This document shows, in pieces, positions 18,356-34,427 of a stretch of 64,000 bases of DNA; the stretch's first letter is position 1, and each line of letters begins with the position of its first letter. The notes beneath the pieces were generated by a model. That model ran no database searches, was not told where the DNA came from, and saw only the letters and a program-made list of their open reading frames with translations. The translations under genes were made by a program, and so were the position numbers. Source of the DNA: Escherichia phage D6; the sequence record NC_050154.1. The stretch is one strand, 5' to 3'.

Positions 18356-18398
18356 ATGGGGATTGAATGAAGATCTTTGCCGGTCGAGAAGCGATTAT

Positions 18399-18660
18399 TG
18401 AGGGTGATTTTTACACCTTAAGTGACGCTACTCACATATCCACAGAGTATTTTTATAAACCTTTTTCCATTTTTAATCCTTTTTAGATCCTTTTTAGGCG
18501 TCGCTGGAGCCAGTAGTGGCGCGGGCTGTAGAGGAGGCTGGTGTAAGATTTGCCCTCAATTAAATACGATCGGTGTAAGATTTGCCCTCAAAAGGTGTAA
18601 GATTTGCCCTCAAAAGGTGTAGTAATTGCCCTCAAAGTGATGTAAAAATTGCCCTCACCA
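18399..18660. other. origin-like region: inverted iteron, DnaA-box-like TATCCACAG (~18437), AT-rich stretch, five direct iterons
   Basis: Read directly; classic iteron-plasmid origin layout upstream of the rep gene. Confidence 0.65.
18540..18657 (+). repeat. iteron array, 5 direct copies of GGTGTAAGATTTGCCCTCA (last two degenerate), mostly 22-23 bp spacing
   Basis: Copies begin near 18540, 18572, 18594, 18616, 18639. Confidence 0.85.
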
Positions 18661-18681
18661 TTTGAAGGATCACACAGGGTT

Positions 18682-19437
18682 ATGAACAGAGCGGAATTAA
18701 CAGCAAAAGCCGTCAGCCTGATTGAGTCAGCGACACCTATTAGTCGTAGTTTGGCACAAGCCAATGAGATCACGGAGGCTGCTTATCACCTGACTCGCGA
18801 CCAAAAGCGACTGTTGTTTATTGTGGTGGGAAGACTTCGCTATGCTTCTAAGGATGGCGTTCTTGGTTCAGGTGCCTGTGAGTTGACGGTCAACGAATAT
18901 GCAGAGATGTATAATTTGCCCTCTGCTGAAGCCAGCAAGGATATTCGTAAGGCCATTTCAGGTCTTAGCGAGAAGAAAGTTACGATATATAACCCTGATG
19001 AATCGACCGAATCAGAAGACAGTTATGAGTCTTATCCTTGGATGATTAAGGATGCCTATTCACCACGGCGCGGGACTTACATTATTCATCTTAATCCATA
19101 TCTCATGCCGTTTTTTACTCTGCTTGATAAGAGATTCACAAGGCTGAATTTTACCGAAGTATCTCGCCTTACAAATCCTTATTCTATGCGGCTTTATGAG
19201 TCCTTATGCCAGTACAGGAAGGATGATGGAAGCGGCTTTGCCATACTTGGCGTCGAATGGATGCGGGAGCGTTATGGGTTACCAAAAAGCTATCAGCGGT
19301 ATGCCGAATTTAAGAGAAGTTTTTTAACGAAGGCTGTAGCAGAGATTGAAAAAAATACAAAAATGAAAATAGTCTTCTCAGAGGTGACGGAAGGCGGCAA
19401 AGTTACCAGGATAAAATTTACCTATCAGCAGTCTTAA
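18682..19437 (+). CDS. iteron-binding replication initiator, Rep_3-like
   Basis: ANEITEAAYHLTRDQKRLLFIVVGRL N-terminal signature; flanked by iterons; start moved to the ATG at 18682 because the track start lies inside an iteron. Confidence 0.8.
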   Translation: MNRAELTAKAVSLIESATPISRSLAQANEITEAAYHLTRDQKRLLFIVVGRLRYASKDGVLGSGACELTVNEYAEMYNLPSAEASKDIRKAISGLSEKKVTIYNPDESTESEDSYESYPWMIKDAYSPRRGTYIIHLNPYLMPFFTLLDKRFTRLNFTEVSRLTNPYSMRLYESLCQYRKDDGSGFAILGVEWMRERYGLPKSYQRYAEFKRSFLTKAVAEIEKNTKMKIVFSEVTEGGKVTRIKFTYQQS

Positions 19438-19770
19438 GGGCAATTTTTACACCCTTCTCAAGGTGTAGAATTTGCCCTTAACGATCGGCAATTGAGGGCA
19501 ATTTTTACATCTTAATTGCATGTATCTTGTTATTAGCAAGTTGTGTTTTTATATAACGTATTGATATATAAGGGTTATGTAAAAATCACCCTCAACCAAT
19601 ATCGTGCGTATCGTGCATTCTTATTGCGCTTTTTTATTATCATTCACTGTGTTAACTGATTGATATTATTGAAATGTGTAAAGAATGCCTTCATTACAGA
19701 TGAATTGATGATGTAAAAAATGCCCTCAAAATTGCGCTACCTTCCCTACCCGCTATCGTTGAGGGCGTGG
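19437..19770. repeat. downstream iteron-like copies in both orientations within AT-rich DNA (inc-type control region)
   Basis: AGGGCAATTTTTACACC, GGTGTAGAATTTGCCCTTA, TGAGGGCAATTTTTACATC, GATGTAAAAAATGCCCTCA. Confidence 0.6.
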
Positions 19771-28623: not shown

Positions 28624-29430
28624 CTATGGTTCCTTTTTGGTGTTCTTTTGGAGCGCATCGATAACGCCTTGTGGCATGATTAAACTGATTGCCGGACTCA
28701 TTACTGCATCATCCAGTAGAGAACCAGTTAACGTGATGGCGACAGCGTTCTCTAAACCTTTGGTTGCCTGAGTGGTTGACGTTTTAATGCGACCTGTAAG
28801 GGCTACGACACTCTCACTTGCTGAGTTAATTTCGGAGAGTAAAGCTTCGGCGGCTGTCACTGCTTCCCGTAAAGCATCAATTTCATCCTGAGTAATGACT
28901 GGAGCCTGAGCGCCCCCAGCACCACCCTGTCCACCATTGCTATCACCACCACCAGCACTTCCGGCAGCTTCAATTTTTGCGTTAATGGCGTTCATGGCGG
29001 TTTTCAGAGCATCAAGTTTTAGCGCCGTCAATGCGTCCGTTAGAGATTGCGGAATGGAAACATTCCCCATTCCCTCAACAAGGGCGAAAGCAGGTATGGG
29101 GGTCAGCTCGTTACCTTTTGCGTAGCATTCCCAGCCAATCTTCATCTGTAACAGCTCTGATGGCTTGGTGTATGGGGAAAGAGAATCAGCCAGTAATGAA
29201 GACGCTTTGCTGGCCTCATTGAGCTGTTCAGAAAAGCCAAGCAATTGAGTAGTCCAGGCCGAAACAGAATCAGGATAGGTTTTATCGGCGTGAACTATTC
29301 CCTGTATGGCGCTGGCGAGCGATGAGGCTTTTACAGAAGCTGCTCGGCTTATGGTTATAGATTCTGGTGTAGAGATACCGGCATCTGACAGAATTTTGAA
29401 GGCTTTAACTTCACCTATTGAATCAAGCAT
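28624..29430 (-). CDS. hypothetical structural protein
   Basis: Start moved to MLDSIG; its ATG overlaps the TAA of the upstream gene. Confidence 0.5.
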   Translation of the reverse strand: MLDSIGEVKAFKILSDAGISTPESITISRAASVKASSLASAIQGIVHADKTYPDSVSAWTTQLLGFSEQLNEASKASSLLADSLSPYTKPSELLQMKIGWECYAKGNELTPIPAFALVEGMGNVSIPQSLTDALTALKLDALKTAMNAINAKIEAAGSAGGGDSNGGQGGAGGAQAPVITQDEIDALREAVTAAEALLSEINSASESVVALTGRIKTSTTQATKGLENAVAITLTGSLLDDAVMSPAISLIMPQGVIDALQKNTKKEP

Positions 29431-29714
29431 TATGCAACCTGAAAAATATCCTCGCCGTTGGCGATAACAGAACCACAAGAAAGCAGATCGCCTACACAGA
29501 CAACTCCCTTTCCACCTATCGAAAACCATGCTCGCGTCGATACAGCTGCCCCTGGATGTGCACTGTTACCGTCAGTGTGACTGGGAAACATGGCACCATC
29601 TACAACAACTGGCTTACCGTTAACGGTGAACCAGGGAACGGTTTCAGCTACCAGTCGCGGCGGAAATCCTCCGTGACCAGAACAAAGGGTGTCGCTGGTG
29701 GCTATTGCGCTCAT
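29430..29714 (-). CDS. PAAR-like spike-tip protein
   Basis: 94 aa with Gly/Cys pattern (CSGHGG, VNGKPVVVDGA, VCVGDLLSCGSVI). Confidence 0.55.
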   Translation of the reverse strand: MSAIATSDTLCSGHGGFPPRLVAETVPWFTVNGKPVVVDGAMFPSHTDGNSAHPGAAVSTRAWFSIGGKGVVCVGDLLSCGSVIANGEDIFQVA

Positions 29715-29789
29715 TCTTCACCTCCTGGTTATCCTTCTATTGTCATCACTTTGTTATTTCGTCATTCAAACGGAGAGTTAAATTTCGGA

Positions 29790-29965
29790 ATATTTTTGTA
29801 TTCTCAATTCGCTCTCAAATTTATCTCACTATCAGACCATCATTCGGTGGGTGATTAAGATATTCTCAAAATAAACTCAACAAGCGCCCTTTTTTATCTC
29901 GTTTGGTGTGGATTTTTGGGGGCTTCTCTTTTAAAATTACATTTTGATTCTCAAATGTGTCTCAG
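29790..29965 (+). repeat. parC-like centromere candidate, 5-7 copies of (A/T)TTCTCAAA
   Basis: GTATTCTCAATT, GCTCTCAAATTT, ATATTCTCAAAAT, GATTCTCAAATG, GTCTCAGAAG in the 190 bp before parM. Confidence 0.4.
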
Positions 29966-29980
29966 AAGTGGAGCAAGAAG

Positions 29981-30937
29981 ATGCGCATTTTTATCGATGA
30001 TGGTTCAACCAATATCAAAATGCTGTGGGAGCACGACGGGGAAACTCGCACTCACATCAGCCCTAACAGCTTTAAGCGCGGATGGTCAGCAACATTTGGT
30101 GCGGGCAAGCCGTTTAACTATGTCATTGACGACGAAAAGTATTCATACGACTTGATATCGCCAGATGTTCTGCCGACGAATAATGTGGAATGGCAATACA
30201 GCCCGCTTAACGTCCTGGCTGTTCACCATGCCCTGCTGACAAGCGGTATTGAGCCGCAGGAAGTAGAAATTGTGGTCACGCTGCCTCTGGCAGAGTTTTA
30301 CGACGACGACGCGCAATACAATCTCGATAACATCGAGCGCAAGAAAGCCAGTCTTATGCGCCCCGTCACGCTGAATAAAGGCAATGTATTCACTATTAAG
30401 AAAGTTACGGTACGCCCGGAGTCTATCCCGGCGGGAATTAGCCTGTGCGACAATCTGAACCCTGCCCACTCTGTTCTTATCGTCGATTTGGGTGGAACTA
30501 CCCTTGATGTTTCAATGGTCGCTGGACAAATGACGGCAGTTTCCCGTGTTTTTGGCGATTCGAATCTTGGTGTATCACTGGTCACCAGGGAAGTAAGGCA
30601 AGCACTTGCAAGGGCCAATACCGAAACGTCAAATTACAATGTTGATCAGCTCATTATTAACCGCCACGATGAAGATTATCTGAACGACAATATCAATGAC
30701 CCATCAGCGATTGGTGATGTGAAAAAGGCCATTGCCGCAAGCATTGACCGTCTGCGTACCCGCGTTCTTGATGTGATTGGCGACTTTAAAGGATATACGC
30801 ATGTCATGGTGATCGGTGGTGGCGCACCGCTGGTGGCAGATGCAATTCGCGAGCAAGTTAATATTCGTGATGACCGTTTCTTCGTGGCGGATGACCCGCA
30901 ACTTGCTCTTGTTCATGGCCTGAAAGCAATCGGTTAA
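29981..30937 (+). CDS. parM: actin-like partition ATPase ParM/StbA
   Basis: MRIFIDDGSTNIK...ISPNSFK...AVHHALLTSG...LIVDLGGTTLDVS; start moved to the RBS-supported ATG. Confidence 0.9.
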   Translation: MRIFIDDGSTNIKMLWEHDGETRTHISPNSFKRGWSATFGAGKPFNYVIDDEKYSYDLISPDVLPTNNVEWQYSPLNVLAVHHALLTSGIEPQEVEIVVTLPLAEFYDDDAQYNLDNIERKKASLMRPVTLNKGNVFTIKKVTVRPESIPAGISLCDNLNPAHSVLIVDLGGTTLDVSMVAGQMTAVSRVFGDSNLGVSLVTREVRQALARANTETSNYNVDQLIINRHDEDYLNDNINDPSAIGDVKKAIAASIDRLRTRVLDVIGDFKGYTHVMVIGGGAPLVADAIREQVNIRDDRFFVADDPQLALVHGLKAIG

Positions 30938-30943
30938 CGAGGT

Positions 30944-31288
30944 ATGTCCATGTCTCAGGAACGTAAGAAAGTGATGATTTATCTTCGCCCAGAGGCTTAT
31001 GCCAATGAAAAGGCGGCGAGCGAGAAGATAAAAAAACATAGCGATATGGCAAGAACTGCATTGTTGGCAGGGCTTGCGCTGGGAGAAGTCGATAGCAGGC
31101 TTCCAGGATTACTGGCTTCCCTGCTGACCGAAGACAATAACCCGGAGCTGATCCGAAAAATGCTGGCATCCTTCTTGGAACTACCAGCTGCGGTTGAGGA
31201 GCGCCCTGCCTCCATTGAGCCAGTGAAGGAGCAATTTGTTGCCAAAAGCGCGTCGGCGCGCAATCTGGCTGACTCTCTACCTGATTGA
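30944..31288 (+). CDS. parR: ParR/StbB-like centromere-binding protein
   Basis: 114 aa immediately after parM; N-terminal RHH-like region, acidic C-terminus. Confidence 0.6.
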   Translation: MSMSQERKKVMIYLRPEAYANEKAASEKIKKHSDMARTALLAGLALGEVDSRLPGLLASLLTEDNNPELIRKMLASFLELPAAVEERPASIEPVKEQFVAKSASARNLADSLPD

Positions 31289-31307
31289 CAGAAGATGTGC
31301 TGGTTTA

Positions 31308-31333
31308 AGGCTGCAAATTGCAGCCTTTTTTAT
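31308..31333 (+). terminator. intrinsic terminator after parR
   Basis: AAGGCTGCAAATTGCAGCCTT followed by TTTTT. Confidence 0.7.
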
Positions 31334-31344
31334 GCCTTAATGGT

Positions 31345-31420
31345 GTCTAATTAGTGTTAATCTGGCACCAGTTAGGTGCTGTTATGGTGCAATTTTGTAT
31401 CTGGTTCCAATTTGGGGCTG
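31345..31420. repeat. GGTGC(A/T) and GGTTCCAATT boxes upstream of the parA-like gene
   Basis: CTGGCACCAGTTAGGTGCTGTTATGGTGCAATT...CTGGTTCCAATTTGG; same motifs recur after the RHH gene. Confidence 0.45.
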
Positions 31421-31575
31421 CTTTCGTGTTAAATAGGATGCAATATAAGGTGTATTTGGTCTGATTGATGTTATACTTTGCCAAACATTCATGACTCCAT
31501 TATAGAGCCTGTCCCGCATCAAAAAGGCTCTTATCTGGAACCGTTTTGATACCAAAATCACACCGAGGAACGGAT

Positions 31576-32217
31576 ATGATTATATTGGTAGTCAGCCAAA
31601 AAGGTGGCTGTGGAAAATCAACCACAAGCGTAAACATCTGTGCGGAGCTTGCCCGCGAAAATAAGGATGTAGTGTTACTAGATGCAGACAAGCAAGGAAC
31701 AGCTGCCCGCTGGGCAGCTGACCGTAACACGGCAGAGGTTTCTCCTGTAATTCATTGTGTCCAGAAGTTTGGTAATATTCGAGAAACACTTCTCGATCTG
31801 GATAAGCGTTATGAATTTGTAGTTGTTGATACAGCCGGGCGCGATAGCAAAGAGATGCGTACAGGCATAACCGCTGCAGATATTGTGTTGGTCCCATTCA
31901 GACCATCTCAACCAGATTTAGACACGCTGGCACACTTTGTTGAAGTGTTTGAAGAGGCTTTGGACCTGATGCCTAATCCTAGCATCAAGGCGTTCGCAGT
32001 CTTAACAATGGCCCCATCCAATCCGGTTGTGAATGAAACCAATGAGGCCAAAGAGTACCTGGCTGAATATCCGCAACTGAAGTTGCTGAAAACCATCATT
32101 CGTGATCGTAAGGTTTACCGCGATTGCATGGCTGAAGGGAAGGGCGTTGTTGAGATGGACAACGGGAAAGCTAAAGGTGAAATCCAGATGTTGGTTAAGG
32201 AGTTATTAAGTGATTAA
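31576..32217 (+). CDS. small Walker-type partition ATPase (ParA/ParF-like, type Ib)
   Basis: deviant Walker A VVSQKGGCGKST; about 213 aa; GAGGAA RBS. Confidence 0.85.
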   Translation: MIILVVSQKGGCGKSTTSVNICAELARENKDVVLLDADKQGTAARWAADRNTAEVSPVIHCVQKFGNIRETLLDLDKRYEFVVVDTAGRDSKEMRTGITAADIVLVPFRPSQPDLDTLAHFVEVFEEALDLMPNPSIKAFAVLTMAPSNPVVNETNEAKEYLAEYPQLKLLKTIIRDRKVYRDCMAEGKGVVEMDNGKAKGEIQMLVKELLSD

Positions 32218-32497
32218 GCCTCGTAAATCGGTAAAAGCCCCCGAAGTAAAAGACCCTGATCTTGAACGCCGAATTGAGGATTTTGCCAGTAAGGCTGATT
32301 TGGTGCCGGGTGAGCAACCAGAAGACAACAAAGTGCTCGATAAGGACGCTCCACGTGATTTTAAATCTATTCGTGTTGGTTTCAATGAATACGAGTACCA
32401 AGTACTTGATGCGTTAAGTAAAAAGCATAATCGCAGCAAATTGAATATGATCCGCCATGCTATCCTCATGTTAGCGGAGTCTGAGGAAGCAAAATAA
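32210..32497 (+). CDS. ParG-like RHH centromere-binding protein
   Basis: 95 aa overlapping the ParA stop; C-terminal RHH-like FKSIRVGFNEYEYQVLDALSKKHNRSKLNMIRHAILMLAE. Confidence 0.55.
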   Translation: MIKPRKSVKAPEVKDPDLERRIEDFASKADLVPGEQPEDNKVLDKDAPRDFKSIRVGFNEYEYQVLDALSKKHNRSKLNMIRHAILMLAESEEAK

Positions 32498-32539
32498 AGT
32501 CTTTCAGGTTGGTTTTAGAACTTAAAAAGTCTTGAACCA

Positions 32540-32620
32540 AAGGTGCACCAATACACCACTAATTTGGTGCACCTTTACATCCTTTTTGGTTCCAATTGTG
32601 TACCATTTGTCATTAATTTA
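32540..32620. repeat. 13-bp perfect inverted repeat AAAGGTGCACCAA plus a GGTTCCAATT box
   Basis: Palindrome with 13-bp spacer; matches the boxes upstream of the parA-like gene. Confidence 0.5.
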
Positions 32621-32765
32621 CTTATGCGCAAAAGTGGGCTTCATGAAAAAGCTCATTATTGAAATAACGATAGAAAGCAATTTCTAATCAACTAGTGGTT
32701 GTCAGCCTATTCGGCTTATAAGATCATACGCTGTTATACGTTGTTTACGCTTTGAGGAATCCACA

Positions 32766-34427
32766 ATGAGTGAGGCAGAAGCCCGCCCGACTAACTTTAT
32801 TCGTCAGATCATCGATGAAGATCTGGCCAGTGGTAAGCACACCACAGTACATACCCGTTTCCCGCCGGAACCGAATGGCTATCTGCATATTGGTCATGCG
32901 AAATCTATCTGCCTGAACTTCGGGATCGCCCAGGACTATAAAGGCCAGTGCAACCTGCGTTTCGACGACACTAACCCGGTAAAAGAAGATATCGAGTACG
33001 TCGAGTCGATTAAAAACGACGTTGAATGGTTAGGTTTTCACTGGTCTGGCAACATCCGTTACTCCTCCGATTATTTTGACAAACTCCATGCCTATGCTGT
33101 TGAACTGATCAACAAAGGCCTGGCGTATGTTGACGAACTGACGCCGGAACAGATCCGCGAATACCGCGGCACCCTGACGCAGCCGGGTAAAAATAGCCCG
33201 TACCGCGATCGCAGCGTTGAAGAGAACCTGGCGCTGTTCGAAAAAATGCGTGCCGGTGGTTTTGAAGAAGGTAAAGCCTGCCTGCGTGCGAAAATCGATA
33301 TGGCTTCGCCGTTTATCGTGATGCGCGACCCGGTGCTGTACCGCATTAAGTTTGCTGAACACCACCAGACTGGCAACAAGTGGTGCATCTACCCGATGTA
33401 CGACTTCACCCACTGCATCAGCGATGCGCTGGAAGGTATTACGCACTCTCTGTGTACGCTTGAGTTCCAGGACAACCGTCGTCTGTATGACTGGGTACTG
33501 GACAACATCACCATTCCTGTTCACCCGCGCCAGTACGAATTCTCGCGCCTGAATCTGGAATACACTGTGATGTCCAAGCGTAAGCTGAACCTGCTGGTGA
33601 CCGACAAGCACGTTGAAGGCTGGGATGACCCGCGTATGCCGACCATTTCCGGTCTGCGTCGTCGTGGTTACACTGCTGCTTCTATTCGTGAGTTCTGCAA
33701 ACGCATCGGCGTGACCAAGCAGGACAACACCATTGAGATGGCGTCGTTGGAATCCTGCATCCGTGAAGATCTCAACGAAAATGCGCCGCGCGCAATGGCG
33801 GTTATCGATCCGGTGAAACTGGTTATCGAAAACTATCAGGGCGAAGGCGAAATGGTCACCATGCCGAACCATCCGAACAAACCGGAAATGGGGAGCCGTC
33901 AGGTGCCGTTTAGCGGTGAGATTTGGATTGATCGCGCCGATTTCCGCGAAGAAGCTAACAAGCAGTACAAACGTCTGGTGCTGGGTAAAGAAGTGCGTCT
34001 GCGTAATGCTTATGTGATTAAGGCAGAACGCGTCGAGAAAGATGCCGAAGGTAATATCACCACCATCTTCTGTACTTATGACGCCGATACCTTAAGCAAA
34101 GATCCGGCAGATGGTCGTAAAGTCAAAGGTGTTATTCACTGGGTGAGCGCGGCACATGCGCAGCCGGTTGAAATCCGTTTGTATGACCGTCTGTTCAGCG
34201 TGCCGAACCCAGGTGCTGCGGATGATTTCCTGTCGGTGATTAACCCGGAATCGCTGGTGATCAAACAGGGCTTTGCTGAACCGTCGCTGAAAGATGCGGT
34301 TGCGGGTAAAGCATTCCAGTTTGAGCGTGAAGGTTACTTCTGCCTCGACAGCCGCCATTCTACGGCGGAAAAACCGGTATTTAACCGCACCGTTGGGCTG
34401 CGTGATACCTGGGCGAAGTTAGGTTAA
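32766..34427 (+). CDS. glnS: glutaminyl-tRNA synthetase, host-like
   Basis: 553 aa with class I HIGH motif and VMSKR (KMSKS) motif; full-length match to E. coli GlnRS as I recall it; the upstream leader ends in TTTACGCTTTGAGGAATCCACA as in the E. coli glnS leader. Confidence 0.97.

Follow-up and report, generated by a model that had tools for sequence, protein, structure and literature searches.

In the parC centromere of plasmid R1, iterons lie on both sides of the promoter in two sets of five, and type Ib RHH partners of the TP228 kind bind arrays of short boxes that double as operator. Loci of the pB171 type have a central region that is a shared centromere. The E. coli virulence plasmid pB171 is the studied case of a double par locus, with a type II system (par1, parMRC) and a type Ib system (par2, parABC) that has both parC1 and parC2 (Ebersbach & Gerdes 2001; Ringgaard et al. 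2007; both as cited in PMC4270457). Such pairings are not rare. The initial annotation of the DNA studied here called double systems uncommon, a view not supported by a 2026 survey of PLSDB, where ~19% of par-carrying plasmids have multiple partition systems and type I-RHH and type II systems occur together in 971 accessions (PMC13245405). For D6-like prophages, 'cop, parA, stbB and parM' have been listed as the partition function, and glnS was noted in all genomes (PMC6799933). That account takes the genes as one 'partition system', without two cassettes, centromere-like boxes or modular exchange.

We analyzed 64,000 nucleotides of Escherichia phage D6 (NC_050154.1), hereafter the window. Two plasmid-segregation cassettes adjoin in it, each complete, conserved and accompanied by its own repeats, in the plus-strand order parM, parR, terminator, parA and a gene for a 95-aa RHH protein (Table 1). 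Very probably the region serves a low-copy phage-plasmid of the D6-like family as its double partition locus, composed of two autonomous cassettes in tandem. On gene identities and repeats, the initial annotation of two tandem partition systems, type II ParM/ParR followed by type Ib ParA/RHH, was essentially correct; its interpretation needs correcting.

Table 1. Positions in the window of the genes and candidate sites of the double par locus
Feature	Position	Strand	Description
parC(M) iteron cluster 1	29798..29834	+	three 11-bp units, TCTCA cores at 29802, 29813, 29824
parC(M) iteron cluster 2	29860..29882	+	TTCTCAAA at 29863 and degenerate ACTCA at 29875, 11 bp apart
candidate parMR -10, TAAAAT	29932..29937	+	flanked by iteron clusters 2 and 3
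parC(M) iteron cluster 3	29945..29966	+	TCTCA at 29949 and 29960; just 5' of parM RBS (GGAG 29970)
parM	29981..30937	+	318 aa, actin-like ATPase for segregation; Pfam StbA_N, ParM C-terminal domain
parR	30950..31288	+	StbB-family adaptor, 112 aa, putative centromere binder; PF10784
intrinsic terminator	31307..31335	+	AAGGCTGCAAATTGCAGCCTT followed by T run; ends parMR operon
upstream ParB-box cluster (parC1-like)	31341..31454	.	candidate boxes, partly 11-bp phased
candidate extended -10 for parAB, TGTTATACT	31470..31478	+	putative promoter
parA	31576..32217	+	small type Ib Walker-type ATPase, 213 aa; Pfam AAA_31, CbiA, MipZ
parB-like RHH gene	32210..32497	+	95 aa, putative centromere binder; GTG start, RBS AAGGAG at 32198
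downstream ParB-box cluster (parC2-like)	32510..32605	.	candidate boxes: two GGTGCACC palindromes, TGGTTCCAATT at 32587, TGTACCA at 32599

The replicon has the make-up of a D6-like plasmid prophage, which the initial annotation had not recognized: myovirus structural genes related to those of P1, an iteron-bearing RepB replicon and glnS, all on a ~90-kb non-mobilizable plasmid. Its annotated products include capsid, tail sheath (41% identity to that of P1/P7), baseplate, PAAR, RepB and GlnS (glnS). The gene repB lies at 18649-19437 with ~22-bp iterons flanking it on both sides, as expected from the iteron replicon that had been placed ~10 kb from the par locus. The Salmonella plasmid pYU39_89 is 99.9% identical to the window across the double par locus. 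Megablast of the locus and neighboring structural genes against a phage collection that did not include D6 (MF356679) returned no match. Tail, baseplate and PAAR genes adjoin the par locus on one side and DNA-metabolism genes on the other. A chromosomal island, a reading prompted by the adjoining glnS, was dropped because the whole locus sits on ~90-kb circular plasmids.

The first cassette encodes a canonical type II pair. ParM scores far over both Pfam cutoffs (234 bits for StbA_N and 187 bits for the C-terminal domain), R1 ParM structures align to it over the full length (E 1e-111), and the nucleotide-binding motifs of the actin fold are intact (DDGSTNIK, DLGGTTLD and GGGAP). Only 13 nt separate the parM stop from the start of parR, directly downstream, which encodes a small adaptor recognized by its Pfam family model (43.3 bits against a cutoff of 25) and by the 'StbB protein' structure 2JD3 in PDB (E 1.6e-6). 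These matches, together with upstream TCTCA boxes described below, bear out the actin-like pair with upstream repeats that had been read from this part of the locus.

The second cassette is of type Ib. ParA falls within the ~200-220 aa expected of this class, has no N-terminal HTH domain and carries a deviant Walker A motif of the form KGGxxGK[ST] (KGGCGKST, residues 9-16). The ParF/TP228 ParA in PDB matches it over its full length (E 1e-18), and it reaches 163 bits with the NCBIfam model ParA_partition, under the cutoff of 180. The 3' end of parA overlaps the start of the RHH gene by 8 nt, and the gene is translationally coupled to parA like those of the small RHH-fold partners in type Ib loci. 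With a deeper alignment, AF2 modeled the 95-aa protein at a pLDDT of 83; a shallow alignment gave a poor model (pLDDT 57). The protein is ribbon-helix-helix (RHH), and the ParA/RHH pair was correctly proposed. It matched no model in Pfam or NCBIfam, is 'unknown function' in PHROGs and is otherwise annotated as 'hypothetical' or as 'cop', the latter a differing functional guess of copy-number control (PMC6799933). An exhaustive HMM search was needed for distant homologues because a word-based search gave only relatives of at least 76% identity; the family comprises 124 representative clusters at 50% identity. In the distant relatives the RHH gene always lies directly 3' of a ParA of 210-211 aa. 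On three unrelated plasmids (pACICU1, Kacie_13 and a metagenome contig with RepA_C), ParA and the RHH protein form the only par cassette, located beside rep genes, and a Serratia plasmid carries the module alongside a ParB/Spo0J-family gene.

Of 5,426 complete genomes of E. coli, 77 carried the tandem pair, as did 106 PLSDB plasmids of the D6-like family, which also extends to Salmonella and Shigella; no family member that we examined lacked it. Purifying selection acts strongly on all four genes (dN/dS 0.01-0.26), whose dS reaches up to saturation. Because the pair is this widespread, strongly constrained and synonymously diverged, it looks old within the sampled family, which does not support an earlier suggestion that one cassette may be a recent acquisition. 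Across eight aligned loci the motors ParM and ParA are 93-100% identical, and the adaptors diverge much faster, with identities of 62-99% for ParR (dN/dS 0.07-0.26) and 78-98% for ParB (0.06-0.12). Intergenic regions of divergent alleles are 43-80% identical, and the two cassettes recombine independently, indicating modular exchange. One cassette may, as also suggested at first, serve incompatibility exclusion, with which the fast-diverging centromere and adaptor alleles are compatible.

The same pattern is what one would expect if partition specificity or incompatibility were under diversifying pressure, and could mean that only one cassette segregates the plasmid, while the other is no active partition machine and is kept mainly to determine incompatibility or exclusion or to regulate transcription, as an RHH 'cop' might, the name given to the small gene (PMC6799933). 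There is precedent in Streptomyces SCP1, whose stability under laboratory conditions depended on only one of its two par systems (PMC13245405). We regard this division of labor as improbable, however, since an incompatibility-only or repressor-only role would require a centromere and an adaptor but no ATPase, whereas both ATPases retain all catalytic motifs and have very low dN/dS (0.01-0.04 for parM; 0.02-0.06 for parA where dS is informative). The occurrence of ParA and its RHH partner as sole par cassette elsewhere likewise argues for a segregation function of the second cassette.

The setting of the locus among phage genes, with the plasmid replicon 10 kb away, might instead suggest that one cassette serves lytic growth, such as the positioning of replicating or packaging DNA, rather than prophage inheritance. 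ParM homologues with 48% identity are carried by phages of the P88/Xuanwuvirus group, which are P2-like and integrative, a hint at ParM roles outside partition. No lytic-cycle regulatory signal was found, however, and R1-type ParM, StbB-type ParR and R1-like phased iterons flanking a promoter constitute a canonical plasmid-partition setup, making lytic service very improbable.

The candidate sites of the first cassette are iterons around the parMR promoter. TCTCA occurs six times here (the cores given in Table 1 and 29864) against 0.42 expected, exact TTCTCAAA has two copies in the window, both upstream of parM, and the three same-strand TCTCA pairs spaced by exactly +11 bp in the window all precede parM. 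The 11-bp phasing of cluster 1 is kept in all eight loci, with an indel of one unit (11 bp) separating alleles; the cluster 3 block ttctcaaatgtgtctcagaagtggagca is identical in 8/8. Phased iterons, as candidate ParR sites, are therefore present, non-random and conserved. The candidate -10 TAAAAT is kept in 8/8 aligned loci, with no clear -35 seen near it. Likewise retained in 8/8 loci is the TGnTATACT proposed for parAB, in a spacer otherwise only 56-77% identical; a consensus promoter scan reported neither inferred promoter. Between the two operons stands the terminator, nearly invariant in the eight loci, two of which show a single substitution, amid diverging flanks. An Rfam scan of the intergenic regions gave nothing meaningful.

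Candidate ParB boxes lie on both sides of parAB. Those of the upstream cluster are TGGTGTC (31341), TGGCACC (31363), AGGTGCT (31374), TGGTGCA (31385), TGGTTCC (31402), TGGGGCT (31413) and AGGTGTA (31448), and relatives have TGGTGCW arrays at the same place with strict 11-bp spacing (at 105, 116, 127 and 138 in L008). GGTGCA was observed 5 times against 0.24 expected. The box consensus is loose. Two different boxes had been proposed to flank parAB on both sides. This is so for TGGTTCCAATT, of which the window holds exactly two copies, one per side (31402 and 32587), but not for GGTGCACC, whose two copies (32542 and 32566) are both downstream, with only the related half-boxes at 31363, 31374 and 31385 upstream. 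Both GGTGCACC palindromes are held within a 13-bp inverted repeat (32539-32551/32564-32576), which is perfect as originally described. In each of two distant relatives, parAB is flanked on both sides by that relative's own box. We do not claim that ParB G57/S57 variants track the box palindromes (GGTGCACC versus GGTACC), as the correspondence is imperfect: in L007 and L009 the window-type ParB occurs without either palindrome, and in L004 a downstream region of the window type goes with the other type of ParB.

Explaining the repeats by chance or base composition, with the genes as ordinary passengers that have no cognate sites here, is hardly credible. In its favor, ParB boxes follow a degenerate consensus, and the 3 strict hits of the upstream cluster taken alone are inside the shuffle range (maximum 4 in 100 shuffles). 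Against it, no other part of the window has boxes as dense as the downstream cluster, which beats all 100 shuffles with 5 strict hits per 120 bp (shuffle maximum 4). All four copies of GGTGCACC and TGGTTCCAATT, the sole +11 TCTCA pairs and the top box clusters of the window are at the par locus, and highly diverged alleles keep both box type and 11-bp phasing.

From these features we infer how a double partition locus with two autonomous cassettes would operate. ParR dimers are predicted to bind the phased TCTCA iterons (parC) flanking the parMR promoter, where they would both repress parMR and build the complex that caps ParM filaments, whose actin-like growth would push sister plasmids apart. 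The second cassette begins past the conserved terminator. Its 95-aa RHH protein probably binds the TGGTGCW-type arrays upstream of parAB, overlapping the promoter and so providing autoregulation, and may also bind the boxes downstream of parB. The basic N-terminus and a conserved helix (residues 16-29) of this protein would stimulate the ATPase of nucleoid-bound ParA, which is predicted to space plasmids over the nucleoid. Both cassettes would thereby contribute to plasmid stability.

A complete double par locus is thus borne by a widespread phage-plasmid family, and the 95-aa protein gains a predicted function and candidate binding sites, of use for annotation, for incompatibility typing of D6-like prophages and for the design of stable P1/D6-type vectors. 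More tentatively, the two cassettes might form a combinatorial partition-specificity system, in which near-fixed motors are paired with diversifying adaptor and centromere alleles that are reshuffled independently, and which includes a previously uncurated RHH ParB family with TGGTGCW boxes on both sides of its operon. We consider this proposal rather doubtful at present; if true, combinatorial specificity would enable related phage-plasmids to evade incompatibility in partitioning and to share a cell or superinfect.

Compared with single model systems, the first cassette resembles R1/NR1 parMRC (stbAB) in its full-length ParM homology and in the StbB Pfam family of its ParR, and its 11-bp-phased iterons lie on both promoter sides as in R1 parC. 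It differs from R1 in having 7-9 boxes in three clusters (3+2+2), another iteron sequence and a second par cassette downstream. For the second cassette, TP228 ParF is the closest solved structure to ParA, and as in ParF/ParG the small partner has a flexible basic N-terminus and a C-terminal RHH. Unlike in TP228, this partner belongs to another sequence family without a Pfam or NCBIfam model, and its boxes are TGGTGCW-like. It aligned neither with the IncK ParB partner nor, at detectable similarity (BLASTP E 0.14), with the CopG-family ParB of L003, the pB171-type locus through which we made the comparison with pB171.

Loci of the pB171 type, found on IncF plasmids, carry the same four gene types. 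As in pB171, the D6-like locus has adjoining genes for ParM, StbB-type ParR, a ~213-aa ParA and an RHH/CopG-type ParB of ~91-95 aa, with candidate ParB sites both upstream and downstream of parAB like parC1 and parC2. Identities to the pB171-type proteins are 43% for ParM, 32% for ParR and 43% for ParA. The host of pB171-type genes is an IncF virulence plasmid and here a phage-plasmid; L003 is arranged divergently around its central region, whereas the D6-like cassettes follow one another on the same strand with a terminator between them. Because double par loci of type II and type Ib are known from pB171 and common in plasmid databases, no new mechanism is opened. Collectively, the D6-like locus would function as a double par locus without having the architecture of pB171, and what sets it apart from pB171 is its tandem layout without a shared centromere and a ParB family beyond the existing Pfam and NCBIfam models.

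The window carries two different partition systems in tandem, each with its own repeats, an identification proposed in the initial annotation and well supported by our analysis of genes and repeats. The first is a type II ParMRC cassette. In its ParM the phosphate and adenosine motifs of the actin fold are intact, and the alignment with R1 ParM spans the full length (E 1e-111); its ParR matches PDB 2JD3 ('StbB protein'), which we take to be the pB171 ParR structure. The terminator following parR is almost invariant across eight diverged loci. Where the parC iteron region begins, a PAAR-domain gene of the tail/baseplate block ends; some relatives misannotate it as 'alanine racemase'. Full-length ParM homologues of ~48% identity were also observed in P88/Xuanwuvirus-group phages (H136-H147, genomes of 33.7-40 kb), presumably P2-like and integrative; if they are, the presence of a partition actin in phages that integrate calls for an explanation.

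Features of the double partition locus, its neighbors and the RepB replicon (window coordinates)
Feature	Position	Product	Remarks
RepB replicon	18398-19733		
Upstream iterons	18539-18662		five tandem ~22-bp copies, GGTGTAAGATTTGCCCTCAA
repB	18649-19437		~22-bp iterons on both sides; more copies downstream, some inverted
PAAR-domain gene	29430-29714 (- strand)		
TCTCA cluster 1	29802/29813/29824		
TCTCA cluster 2	29864		degenerate copy at 29875
TCTCA cluster 3	29949/29960		
parM	29981-30937	318 aa	well exceeds the cutoffs of both ParM Pfam domains
parR	30950-31288	112 aa	StbB family, PF10784
Intrinsic terminator	31307-31335		strong; after parR
Boxes upstream of parAB	31341, 31363, 31374, 31385, 31402, 31413, 31448		
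parA	31576-32217	213 aa	deviant Walker A KGGCGKST
parB	32210-32497	95 aa	8-nt overlap with parA end; own RBS
Boxes downstream of parAB	32510, 32533, 32541/32544, 32552, 32565/32568, 32587, 32599		
glnS	32678-34427	glutaminyl-tRNA synthetase	directly after downstream boxes

Upstream of parM, TCTCA occurs six times versus 0.42 expected, always on one strand, and the three exact 11-bp TCTCA pairs of the entire 64-kb window all lie here. The 11-bp phasing is retained in the eight loci despite upstream regions that are only 55-80% identical, and alleles are set apart by a single inserted unit of 11 bp, TTGTTCTCAAA.

The second cassette is type Ib. TP228 ParF/ParA are the best solved relatives of its ParA, which scores just below the NCBIfam ParA_partition cutoff. 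The 95-aa product of parB matched no Pfam or NCBIfam model and resides in PHROGs as phrog_9169, 'unknown function'. An exhaustive HMM search placed it in a family of 124 representative clusters (50% identity) with members of 65-100 aa. These have in common a basic N-terminus (M-x-K-R-R) and an IExFAxxAD helix, both conserved, then a variable linker leading to the C-terminal block FKxIxVxFNEYEYxxLxxxAxxxGRSKLNxIRxAI. A ribbon-helix-helix (RHH) fold is supported for the protein on several counts: 20-22 of 59 family members match RHH_1 or NikA-like Pfam models, CopG aligns with the family profile over the whole RHH domain (weak E of 0.15), and a PHROG Arc-like repressor family weakly matches the window protein. 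It founds an RHH family lacking a Pfam or NCBIfam model. Residues R5, F25 and D30 are near-invariant in the family alignment and are candidates for ParA contact.

Around parAB, the GGTGCA core is enriched (5 observed versus 0.24 expected), as is GGTACCA with one mismatch allowed (10 versus 0.92). No cluster in the window is denser than the downstream one, which has 5 strict hits (at most 4 in any of 100 shuffles) and contains the perfect 13-bp inverted repeat described initially. Boxes had been placed on both sides of parAB. This is true of TGGTTCCAATT, whose only two copies in 64 kb lie one on each side, but not of GGTGCACC, whose only two copies are both downstream. Relatives with a 56-59% identical spacer have cleaner arrays, such as TGGTGCA/TGGTGCT/TGGTGCT at strict 11-bp spacing in L008. 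The ~80-nt leader of the neighboring glnS matches chromosome-sized records, E. coli included, at 88-96%, which marks glnS as a gene captured from a host; some D6-like relatives (L006-L010) lack glnS and have a terminator then dam in its place.

In distant members of the 95-aa family with readable context, the gene always directly follows and overlaps a 210-211-aa ParA gene. No other par cassette accompanies this module, which often adjoins a rep gene, in metagenome contigs, pACICU1 and a Kacie_13 plasmid; in a Serratia plasmid it sits alongside a ParB/Spo0J-family gene. ParMR was adjacent to it in none of these. In two distant modules, parAB is flanked on each side by the module's own box, AAACTAA in L017 (2330-2380 and 3290-3335) and TAGTACC in L013 (3160-3350 and 4290-4300). 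Centromeres flanking the operon on both sides may thus be typical of the family.

In database searches, the matches to the 3-kb locus were circular plasmids of ~90 kb, non-mobilizable and from E. coli, Salmonella and Shigella. Among complete E. coli genomes, 77 of 5,426 contain 80% or more of the locus, as do 106 PLSDB plasmids. Salmonella Typhimurium pYU39_89 (CP011430) is 99.9% identical over the double locus. The publication on this plasmid describes a D6-like plasmid prophage that has repB plus iterons, repL, cre/lox, glnS, two toxin-antitoxin systems and 'a partition system ... cop, parA, stbB and parM' (PMC6799933). In an annotated relative, capsid, tail sheath, baseplate and PAAR genes lie directly upstream of the locus and glnS, dam and rdgC downstream; the tail sheath is ~41% identical to that of P1/P7. 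Collectively, the pYU39_89 match, structural genes and tail sheath show that this low-copy replicon is a phage-plasmid. The RepB iteron replicon reported ~10 kb from the par locus is real.

Window genes were compared with seven diverged loci, with dN/dS read where dS, which ranged up to saturation, was informative. Ratios were 0.01-0.04 for parM, 0.07-0.26 for parR, 0.02-0.06 for parA and 0.06-0.12 for parB, and all four ORFs are intact in every locus examined. Adaptors (ParR and ParB) and centromere regions evolve far faster than motors (ParM and ParA). The pair was present in every D6-like family member examined, and purifying selection on it is strong; both points speak against the recent acquisition suggested initially. 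In L009, parA is near-identical to that of the window (dS 0.007) and parM is saturated (dS 2.6), whereas L004 and L010 show the reverse (parM dS 0.15-0.19, parA dS 1.25). This discordance shows that parMR and parAB are swapped as independent modules, and implies recombination breakpoints within the intergenic centromere regions. The double locus is a mosaic when L004, L007, L009 and L010 are compared with window 29981-32497. From sequence, we infer that ParR and ParB would bind DNA at their boxes and autoregulate, and that each cassette would contribute to stability.

The pairing had also been considered uncommon. In a 2026 survey, ~19% of the PLSDB plasmids with any par locus had more than one such system, and 971 accessions combined type I-RHH with type II, a pairing that had been described earlier (PMC13245405); it is therefore not uncommon. 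An ordinary, though nicely organized, double partition locus is the well-supported reading. The same four gene types occur together in the pB171-type locus of IncF plasmids, where the cassettes are divergently oriented around a central region. ParM, ParR and ParA of the window are 43, 32 and 43% identical to their pB171-type counterparts, whereas the ParB proteins have no detectable relation. What sets the window locus apart from the pB171 model is a tandem arrangement without a shared centromere, a ParB from an RHH family without a curated model, and independently exchanged adaptor/centromere alleles.
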